Counted from the first letter of the stretch, positions 17,071 to 18,426 are shown. The stretch is 32,000 nucleotides of DNA from an uncultured Planctomycetia bacterium (GCA_964536865.1 CAZHYN010000005.1:1-32000), one strand, 5' to 3'. Notes: generated by a model not told the origin, from the sequence alone. A program made the numbers and translations.

Positions 17071-17444
17071 CACCTTAATCTTGGTGTTTCCACCAAGGGT
17101 GGACTATACCTTCACCCCACCCTTTCTATCCACGCAAATTAATTGAAACTGAGTAATTTTTAAGATACTTAACCAAACGAAAATATCCTCTTCCTCTTAA
17201 ATTAGGTGTTTAGAAAGAGTGGGGGCCGGCGTATTAGCCATCCTTTAATTTGAGTTCTTAGAACTCATAAGATGGCTCCCTTCCCTTAAAAGAGAAGGAG
17301 TCTCTACGGGGTCATCAAGGAAAAAATTCCCTTTAGACTTCCCTCGGGATTACCCAGTATTCTCAAAAGAATCCTTAGGGCTTTCCCGATATGAGCCGGT
17401 GTTTCATCCCAATTTGCATTGGGAAGGGGCAAGTTTAAAAACTT
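17071..17444 (-). mobile_element. ORF-less group I intron in 23S after U1951-equivalent (GUCGGGU|AAGUUCC)
   Basis: Exon ...tagtcgggt | aagtttttaaacttgccc (P1 helix with U-G at the splice site) ... gaaggtatagtcc ... gattaaggtg | aagttccgacccgcacgaa. The intron ends in G and has no ORF. Confidence 0.7.
17115..17245 (-). repeat. GC-clamp hairpin insertion nested in the intron at 17071..17444 (immediately 5' of the aaggtatagtcc element)
   Basis: ccccaccctttcta (17115-17128) pairs with tagaaagagtggggg (17231-17245). The single non-Watson-Crick position is a G-U wobble only in the rRNA-sense transcript. Confidence 0.65.
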
Positions 17445-17499
17445 ACCCGACTAGGAATTTCGCTACCTTAGGCATTCCTTTCGGAATGGACCATATCTT

Positions 17500-17600
17500 T
17501 CCCGCCCTTTTTACTCACCCAAACTAACTTTATTTAAACTCATTTTGAGACTCTTTAGTTTTTTGTCTACTCTTACCTTGTGAATTTAAAAAGGGCGGGA
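17500..17600 (-). repeat. GC-clamp hairpin insertion nested in the intron at 17473..18260, overlapping the 3' end of the LAGLIDADG ORF
   Basis: tcccgcccttttt (17500-17512) pairs perfectly with aaaaagggcggga (17588-17600). Confidence 0.65.
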
Positions 17601-18132
17601 CCTGGCGTATGGTCTCTGAGGATCCCAAGGAGGAGAGAATTTCTCTTAAATTATATTTGCGTTGTTTTCCTTTATCATTCATACTGCAAGCAAGTTTTAC
17701 TATTGCTTTAAATCCTTCCAGAGTATGATGATCTTTTTTTTCCATTCTCTCTATAATTTGACTAAATTTGAGAAAATTTTCCCATTTGTCAGTTAAGAGT
17801 TTATATTTCTTAAAAAAAGGTAAGATCTTCTCTTTCAGTGTGCGTCTTTCTGAGATGCAATATACATAAGTGTTACTCTTAGGTGATTTAGGTTTAATAT
17901 ATCCTGCCTGAAAAAATTTTTTAAGTAACTCCAAAAGGTGGATATTTTTTTTATGCTGATAAACCTGGAAACAGGGGTCTATCACCCAGCCAAACTTTGC
18001 TGTAGGCAACTTCTTTATAGAAACACTGAAAGAACCTTCTCCATCTACAAATCCTGCGATGTAGTAACTTAGATATTTTCTCTTTGAAGGTAAACGCTGA
18101 AAACAAAGATTATCTTTGAATTCATAAAGCAT
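17530..18132 (-). CDS. single-motif LAGLIDADG homing endonuclease
   Basis: YIAGFVDGEGSFSVSI motif. The likely start is MLYEF (ATG 18130-18132), preceded by aaggagggg. Paralogous to 15735..16262, including DNA-level similarity around ctggcgtaYRgtctctgagg. Confidence 0.8.
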   Translation of the reverse strand: MLYEFKDNLCFQRLPSKRKYLSYYIAGFVDGEGSFSVSIKKLPTAKFGWVIDPCFQVYQHKKNIHLLELLKKFFQAGYIKPKSPKSNTYVYCISERRTLKEKILPFFKKYKLLTDKWENFLKFSQIIERMEKKDHHTLEGFKAIVKLACSMNDKGKQRKYNLREILSSLGSSETIRQVPPFLNSQGKSRQKTKESQNEFK

Positions 18133-18426
18133 TGCCCCTCCTTGGTTTCCTGCTGGTAACTCCTCTGTAGGAATTCTCACCTTCTCGGTACCCTACAGAT
18201 TTAGGAGTGTCCCAGCATATAGCCAGGTTTTACAACGGCCCTGCTCTTTTTTCAGAGTCGACCGTTATAGTTACGGCCGCCGTTCACCGGGGCTTCGGTT
18301 CTCCGCTTTGATACGGGTCCCCTTAACCTTCCGGCACTGGGCAGGTCTCAGTCCCTATACATCCTCTTTCGAGTTAAGCAGGGACCTGTGTTTTTGCTAA
18401 ACAGTCCCGGGAGCCATTTCACTGCG

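Follow-up and report, generated by a model that had tools for sequence, protein, structure and literature searches.

Closely spaced group I introns in the 23S ribosomal RNA (rRNA) gene have been described before. In Coxiella burnetii, Cbu.L1917 and Cbu.L1951, of subgroups IB2 and IA3, are separated by a 34-nucleotide (nt) exon, and exon skipping has been observed (Raghavan et al. 2007, J Bacteriol 189:6572, as summarised in PMC10136302 and PMC1995217). The 23S gene of Synechococcus sp. C9 holds L1917, L1931 and L2593 introns, all bearing open reading frames (ORFs), with a 14-nt exon between two of them, and the ORF of its L1917 intron begins within P6 and extends across P7, P3 and P8 (PMC1995217). 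Introns at position 1923 of the large subunit (LSU) rRNA are classed as IB4 in archaea, where contig KP308720.1 carries introns at both 1923 and 1931 with 8 nt between them (PMC6125680); the same position is occupied by Ce.LSU.5, with I-CeuI, in the chloroplast of Chlamydomonas eugametos (PMC3315327), and multi-intron 23S genes are found in bacteria of the Candidate Phyla Radiation (CPR) (PMC11270868). Here we analyse a related arrangement in a 32,000-nt stretch of DNA from an uncultured Planctomycetia bacterium (GCA_964536865.1 CAZHYN010000005.1:1-32000; hereafter the window), in which two insertions with group I cores, at sites L1923 and L1951, leave between them a 23S micro-exon of 28 nt.

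The window pair resembles that of Coxiella in several respects: two introns of different subgroups surround a very short exon in the helix 69 to helix 71 (H69-H71) region, site L1951 is identical (occupied by an IA3 intron in Coxiella), one intron of the pair has a LAGLIDADG gene, and the same gene carries an intervening sequence (IVS) at 23S helix 45 (for Coxiella, PMC4990558). However, the two pairs also differ: (i) the upstream site is 1923 and the exon 28 nt in the window, against 1917 and 34 nt in Coxiella. (ii) The ORF lies in the upstream intron of the window and L1951 is ORF-less, whereas the L1951 intron of Coxiella (720 nt) holds the ORF. (iii) The upstream intron is IB4-like rather than IB2. 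(iv) Self-splicing and exon skipping have been demonstrated experimentally in Coxiella, whereas splicing of the window pair is predicted from sequence. With Ce.LSU.5, the window's upstream intron shares the insertion site and a single-motif (homodimer-type) LAGLIDADG gene, but its protein is only distantly similar to I-CeuI (E 1.4e-20) and its host is bacterial, not organellar. As in Synechococcus sp. C9, one bacterial 23S gene contains multiple endonuclease-bearing group I introns, and the endonuclease ORF overlaps ribozyme P6 through P8, like that of the Synechococcus L1917 intron; the sites differ, however, and the window's L1951 intron is ORF-less. Archaeal and CPR introns (PMC6125680; PMC11270868; Brown et al. 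2015) offer a further parallel, with several per 23S gene clustered at 1917, 1923, 1931, 1951, 2593 and 2604, single-domain LAGLIDADG genes, and GIY-YIG ORFs in non-intron inserts, although the gene content of the window does not look typically CPR. The text of the CPR survey names 1917, 1931, 1952, 2593, 2604 and 2657 as frequent LAGLIDADG positions, 1923 not being among them, and its supplement gave no match for 1923, 1924, 1951 or 1952 (PMC11270868). A preliminary description of the window, made from its sequence, had already cited Coxiella, Thermotoga and Simkania as precedents; these comparisons agree with PMC1995217, PMC10136302 and the reference list of PMC11270868.

Aligned to the covariance model of bacterial LSU rRNA, the 23S gene shows a first insertion of 793 nt, facing 5 model positions, between ...AACGGUC and GUAGCG, and a second of 375 nt, facing 1 model position, between CGGGUAAG and UCCGACC. 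Because a few bases are repeated at each intron border, we set the boundaries by the rule that a U precedes the 5' splice site and a G is the last base of the intron, which gives the following features:
18261..18275, minus strand: final part of the 5' exon, CGUAACUAUAACGGU, in the 3' strand of H69, last base U1923
18260..17473, minus strand: L1923 intron, 788 nt
17530..18132, minus strand: single-motif LAGLIDADG homing endonuclease gene, 200 amino acids (aa), ATG at 18132, identified by ORF, Pfam and PDB searches
17501..17599, minus strand: 99-nt AT-rich insert forming an extended P8 of the L1923 intron, stem cap CCCGCCCUUUUU/AAAAAGGGCGGG
17472..17445, minus strand: micro-exon CCUAAGGUAGCGAAAUUCCUAGUCGGGU, 28 nt, 23S 1924-1951, H70 and the 5' half of H71
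17444..17071, minus strand: L1951 intron, 374 nt
17050..17070, minus strand: start of the 3' exon, AAGUUCCGACCCGCACGAAAG, A1952 onward

In an alignment of the spliced exon sequence with an annotated E. coli 23S gene, 1923 is the last position of the 5' exon and 1924-1951 are those of the micro-exon, with U1923 and U1951 at the splice sites. The intron and micro-exon coordinates of the preliminary description are therefore borne out by the LSU alignment and the boundary rule, and its site numbers by the alignment to E. coli. The first 3 nt of the micro-exon are able to form P10 with the upstream intron, and its last 4 nt supply the exon side of the downstream intron's P1. A twintron, with one intron nested in the other, was ruled out: the introns lie side by side, with a real rRNA exon (1924-1951) between them.

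The L1923 intron has a compact core, with no P2, no P7.1 or P7.2, and a J7/3 of 2 nt. Its P1 is formed by exon AACGGU and the guide GCCGUU, U·G being the pair at the 5' splice site, and its 3' end reads ...GGAAUG before CCUAAGG, with the terminal G present. The elements of this core are:
18242-18240, minus strand: AGG, intron part of P10
18239-18234, minus strand: internal guide sequence (IGS) for P1, GCCGUU
18227-18222 with 17606-17601, minus strand: P3, CCUGGC/GCCAGG
18216-18212 with 18156-18152, minus strand: P4
18208-18204 with 18163-18159, minus strand: P5
18151-18148 with 17622-17619, minus strand: P6
18145-18137 with 17633-17625, minus strand: P6a
17614-17609 with 17494-17489, minus strand: P7, GACCAU/AUGGUC
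17599-17588 with 17512-17501, minus strand: P8
17500-17495, minus strand: J8/7
17488-17473, minus strand: P9 hairpin and terminal G

These core features, together with the class of the archaeal LSU/1923 introns (PMC6125680), fit an IB4-like assignment. In alignment A1, which comprises 20 diverse members of the L1923 family with the P6 insert excised, the structure derived from the window (scored over P1, P3, P4, P5, P5b, P6, P7 and P8) forms pairs in 96.9% of cells, whereas slid controls reach 28-42%. In the pseudoknot helix P3 all cells are paired (100%), and 5 of its 6 pairs have compensatory changes; P5, P5b and P8 covary as well, and the U·G pair at the 5' splice site is found in 20/20 relatives. 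P5a and P9 were left out of the covariation count, MAFFT having set two sub-classes one column out of register. ORF-less members of the family score 51.8-63.9 bits against the Rfam model Intron_gpI (gathering score 50). The 99-nt P8 insert is missing from the nearest copies of the window's intron. The P9 hairpin is closed by a C-G pair that uses the terminal G.

The L1951 intron itself scores 53.7 bits (E 4e-11) against Intron_gpI (RF00028; gathering score 50). Its P1 joins GGGU of the exon and AAG of the intron to the guide CUUGCCC, again with U·G at the 5' splice site, and its 3' end reads ...AAGGUG before AAGUUCC, with the terminal G in place:
17444-17442 (AAG), following exon GGGU, with 17433-17427 (IGS CUUGCCC), minus strand: P1
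17435-17431, minus strand: AACUU, intron part of P10
17423-17408, minus strand: P2, GCAA loop
17399-17395 with 17230-17226, minus strand: P3, CCGGC/GCCGG
17388-17385 with 17348-17345, minus strand: P4
17380-17378 with 17355-17353, minus strand: P5
17343-17341 with 17311-17309, minus strand: P6
17302-17299 with 17105-17102, minus strand: P7, GACU/AGUC
17298-17278, minus strand: P7.1 hairpin
17275-17238, minus strand: P7.2 hairpin
17224-17213 with 17126-17115, minus strand: P8, AT-rich loop of ~86 nt
17101-17098 with 17074-17071, minus strand: P9.0
17097-17080, minus strand: P9, GAAA loop
17071, minus strand: terminal G

With P7.1 and P7.2 between P7 and P3', the hallmark of this class, the L1951 intron is of the IA type; the finer designation, IA3-like, rests on the precedent of the Coxiella L1951 intron (PMC10136302). 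Alignment A2 comprises 26 ORF-less L1951 introns, picked by position only from retrieved insertions shorter than 400 nt. Here 88.5% of cells are paired, and sliding the 3' partners by 1-3 columns lowers this to 36-48%; compensatory changes occur in 27 pairs, and 0/500 shuffles reached the observed values. The U·G pair is present in 26/26, P7 (GACU/AGUC) is invariant, and all 75 of the 75 L1951 insertions retrieved have the terminal G. Relatives of the window's L1951 intron carry a LAGLIDADG ORF in P8. In L1951 introns the final four bases, of which the terminal G is one, are able to pair with the four that come right after P7; in A2 (columns 479-482 with 506-509) the three inner pairs covary (GC/GU/AU, CG/UA, GC/CG), the matching window positions being 17071-17074 with 17098-17101. 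All the motifs listed in the preliminary description (P1 with its U·G pair, the terminal G, and the J8/7-P7 elements AAAGAUAUGGUCC and UGAAGGUAUAGUCC) were recovered, and P1-P9 folding, which it had named as a check beside an Intron_gpI scan, yielded a group I core with the P3-P7 pseudoknot in both introns. It was also right that the second intron lacks an ORF, the LAGLIDADG gene being in the upstream one.

This gene sits in the P6a loop of the L1923 intron, with AAGGAGG 4 nt upstream of its ATG, within the 5' strand of P6a, and with its stop codon inside the P8 insert. Its 3' end is co-encoded with P6a', J6/7, P7, P3' and the 5' strand of P8, and the stretch ...SSLGSSETIRQ that precedes the tail is specified by P6a', J6/7, P7 and P3'. 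The protein matches Pfam LAGLIDADG_1 (PF00961) at 1.1e-23 over one domain, with the motif YIAGFVDGEGSF, its acidic residue present, and with GFVDGEG, and the presence of just one LAGLIDADG motif implies that it would act as a homodimer. Intact orthologues occur in five lineages; those of loci L154, L181, L170 and L126 have 180-184 aa and end a few codons into P8; after the common ...ETIRQ the window protein has a tail of 22 residues, against 3-4 in the orthologues, which is explained by the P8 insert. Among PDB entries, the I-SmaMI/I-OnuI-type domains are matched at E ~4e-45 and I-CeuI at 1.4e-20, and an orthologue of I-CeuI was dismissed on this similarity. The I-CeuI-type character proposed in the preliminary description thus holds for the site (LSU 1923), but the endonuclease is not especially close to I-CeuI. 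We predict an active enzyme whose target would be the intron-less L1923 allele (TAACTATAACGGT followed directly by CCTAAGGTAGCGAAATT), cleavage of which would drive homing; that near-identical copies of the intron sit in hosts with exons only 83-87% identical (see below) speaks for this indirectly.

Taken together, these observations confirm both insertions and support their interpretation as group I introns. At a probability of roughly 85%, we favour the reading that they are two independent tandem group I introns in 23S H69-H71, each of which would leave the pre-rRNA by itself through standard two-step, guanosine-initiated transesterification; catalytic activity and splicing order we infer for both. 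In the L1923 intron, the guide GCCGUU would align on AACGGU of the exon, which puts U1923·G at the splice site, and AGG could form P10 on CCU of the micro-exon (positions 1924-1926). The L1951 intron would align CUUGCCC on GGGU and the following AAG, with U1951·G at the splice site, and would form P10 between AACUU and AAGUU of the 3' exon. Since the guides differ and contact opposite ends of the micro-exon, the introns could act separately and in either order, with the micro-exon kept. Tandem Tetrahymena introns have been engineered, and exon skipping was found to be suppressed where their P1/P10 recognition elements were differentiated (PMC10136302); the natural pair of the window also has differentiated P1/P10 elements.

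Several points weigh against self-splicing of this pair. The window copy of the L1923 intron reaches 13 bits against Intron_gpI, a low score attributable to two inserts, the ORF-bearing one of 523 nt in P6a and that of 99 nt in P8. In A1, little can be read from the invariance of P4', P6 and P7, because the search pattern and the trimming anchors determined these motifs in part, a constraint from which P3, P5 and P8 are free. The 99-nt P8 insert of the L1923 intron could impair folding, and so could the ~86-nt AT-rich P8 loop of the L1951 intron. In both introns the terminal G can pair into the P9/P9.0 hairpin, which it must leave to dock in the G-binding site. Finally, core conservation is no guarantee of splicing in vivo, because the Simkania L1931 intron is reported as unspliced (from a title cited in PMC1995217).

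The alternative that best survives, which we nevertheless regard as unlikely, is that one or both insertions keep the group I fold and either need the help of a protein, be it the LAGLIDADG protein as a maturase or some host factor, or are poorly spliced and so delay the maturation of the ribosome. It would accommodate the foreign-looking P8 insert of the L1923 intron, without counterpart in the closest copies, the AT-rich loop in P8 of the L1951 intron, where relatives hold an endonuclease gene, and the overlap of the endonuclease ORF with P6a', P7, P3' and P8. Some LAGLIDADG proteins are maturases, and this known activity speaks in the same sense. However, neither intron has lost a core helix or any of the conserved nucleotides of J8/7 and P7, the P8 loop is where insertions are usually tolerated, and the ORF-less members of the family do without a cis-encoded protein. 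We consider it very improbable that the insertions go unspliced, being kept as expansion segments or excised without ligation like an IVS, which would fragment the 23S rRNA. Several IVS-like hairpin inserts do lie in the same operon, one of them at helix 45, the classical IVS site, and the Simkania report would be a precedent; yet 1923 and 1951 are inside H69 and H71 at the subunit interface and not at the tip of a peripheral helix, and a non-spliced insert would have no reason to keep a covarying core, the U·G pair, the terminal G and guides that match the exons. That the locus is an assembly artefact, or the operon a dead pseudogene copy, is hardly credible: the contig does come from a metagenome assembly, and of the operon only the far 3' part is covered by the independent Logan contig L002, but the exons are full-length with high scores against the LSU and small-subunit (SSU) models (2322, 532 and 1472 bits), related contigs match the flanking rRNA at 94-98% identity, and the same L1923, 28 nt and L1951 layout occurs in dozens of unrelated assemblies.

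The preliminary description had called correct splicing of such an exon demanding, implying that the arrangement is unusual; here it overstated the case, for the same pair with a 28-nt exon occurs in dozens of genomes and contigs from several phyla, and an exon of only 6 nt is present in close relatives. We scanned one genome per bacterial or archaeal species with G followed by CCUAAGGUAGCGAAAUUCC as query, that is, with the intron-terminal G directly before C1924. The scan gave at least 120 loci; of the matches listed, 119 are real L1923 interruptions, and a second insertion of 252-812 nt right after GUCGGGU, always ending in G before AAGUUCC, is found in 33/120. By annotation, and among the matches listed, hosts of such twins include Solirubrobacterales, Acidimicrobiia, Acidobacteriota, Gemmatimonadota, Kaiser-, Peri- and Kerfeldbacteria, and others; the pair thus recurs across Actinomycetota, Acidobacteriota, Gemmatimonadota, CPR lineages and unclassified bacteria. 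The window's own L1923 family comprises 98 loci with the common 3' end GAUAYGGUCC-hairpin-G: 43 are complete twins, ~10 more end inside the L1951 intron, and 44 are uninterrupted at 1951. Since the pair recurs widely and 6-nt exons occur, a very short exon between two ribozymes is evidently no serious obstacle. By their 3' ends, the L1923 introns are of two kinds (L003-L122, among the matches listed): the kind common in Actinomycetota and Acidobacteriota ends in ...GUAACAAnnnUG, and introns of the window's kind end in ...AAGAUAYGGUCC-hairpin-G.

The two introns of the window appear to have different histories. In loci L126, L135 and L193 the rRNA exons are 94-98% identical to those of the window, whereas the L1923 intron is 78% identical only. 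These nearest relatives have no L1951 intron and instead carry an extra L1917 intron with a LAGLIDADG ORF, which leaves the 6-nt exon AACGGU between L1917 and L1923:
L126 7961-8776, minus strand: L1917 intron
L126 7262-7954, minus strand: L1923 intron

To judge from the guides, the upstream intron (guide ACCGUU) would have to use this hexanucleotide for its P10, and the downstream one (guide GCCGUU) for its P1. Conversely, loci L154, L153 and L181, with 23S exons 83-87% identical to the window, have an L1923 intron 95-96.5% identical to its own (window 17601-18248); a near-identical intron in diverged hosts is the classic and clear mark of horizontal transfer. Between the window's L1951 intron and those of L161, L125, L209 and L129, the resemblance is confined to the first ~60 nt (88%), and these four hold a LAGLIDADG gene in P8. 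As the nearest relatives of the two introns differ, the introns were evidently acquired separately, and co-acquisition was rejected for the window lineage.

This bears on the tentative idea, which we think possible but doubtful, that L1923 and L1951 form a composite mobile unit in which an ORF-less partner persists or spreads by hitch-hiking on the endonuclease of its neighbour. With the sites 28 bp apart, the double-strand break of one endonuclease could lead to co-conversion of the neighbouring site. Among the matches listed, 59 twin loci (L003-L211) could be classed by intron length, below or above 500 nt, as a gauge of ORF status: an endonuclease-sized intron stands at just one of the two sites in 42 (the upstream site in 23, the downstream in 19), at both in 13 and at neither in 4. 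This complementary distribution (Fisher p = 5e-4, relatedness ignored) hints at an ORF-less partner riding on its neighbour by co-conversion; the composite unit is countered in the window lineage by the evidently separate acquisition of its two introns.

The H69-H71 pair is only one part of a far more heavily interrupted 23S gene, in the single rRNA operon of the window, which lies on the minus strand and also includes tRNA-Ile and tRNA-Ala. The 23S end at 16353 given by the first whole-window Rfam pass is wrong: in a regional scan of 14600-16800, the alignment takes in model positions 2254-2912 and reaches 14950. Since the gene continues to ~14950, with the L2604 intron and a further insert inside, the apparent 1.5-kb gap between 23S and 5S consists of rRNA gene plus insertions. 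The exons are full-length, at 2322 and 532 bits for the LSU model and 1472 bits for the SSU model. This 23S gene is further interrupted by the L2604 intron, by an insert with a GIY-YIG ORF and by several hairpin elements that resemble IVSs, all listed here with the rRNA genes and the hairpins of the 16S gene:
22836..21011, minus strand: 16S rRNA (Rfam pass over the window)
14950..20339, minus strand: whole 23S rRNA gene, ~5.39 kb (LSU_rRNA_bacteria alignments)
14848..14732, minus strand: 5S rRNA
15512-16423, minus strand: third group I intron, L2604, 912 nt, after exon ...GAGACAGU, intron end ...AACAGAUUG before UCGGUC
15035-15321, minus strand: 287-nt insert at the tip of helix 98, stem CCCGCCCUUUU/AAAAGGGCGGG at its borders
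22658-22766, 22428-22531, 22160-22184 and 21401-21498: capped hairpin inserts of the 16S gene
18978-19086 (helix 45) and 18428-18453: capped hairpin inserts of the 23S gene
17501-17599: capped hairpin insert in P8 of the L1923 intron

The L2604 intron has a core very like that of the L1923 family and a weak Intron_gpI match (30.6 bits). Its LAGLIDADG ORF (16262..15735) is 43% identical to that of the L1923 intron (E 3e-42), its end (...GUAACAGAUUG) is like that of the Actinomycetota/Acidobacteriota kind of L1923 intron, and it is common to L126, L135 and L193 at 97% identity. The helix 98 insert has no group I core and holds an 81-aa GIY-YIG ORF (15290..15045; Pfam 1.3e-09); it is missing from close relatives, which have a 19-nt hairpin there, and is also present in the independent Logan assembly L002. 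The hairpin inserts form a family with the common cap stem CC(C/A)GCCCUUU...AAAGGGC(G/U)GG, of which there are 17 occurrences against 2.2 expected, all within the rRNA operon. Most are ~100 nt and AT-rich, two are bare 25-nt hairpins, and they explain ~290 extra nt of the 16S gene. Locus L126 has short hairpins with another common cap, CCCCGAC...GUCGGGG, at 3/5 sites compared, so that caps look homogenised within a genome. Speculatively, the capped hairpins are possibly elements like IVSs or miniature inverted-repeat transposable elements (MITEs), with the GIY-YIG copy as a candidate autonomous member.

The find is thus correct yet fairly ordinary, since this layout is common in public bacterial genomes, and as a single case it adds little to what is already known of tandem introns with a micro-exon and of multi-intron rRNA genes. 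The survey is of some use in that it documents the recurrence of the L1923, 28 nt and L1951 pair across phyla, and natural pairs with distinct guides would be good material on how exon skipping is avoided and how ORF-less introns may hitch-hike on their neighbours.

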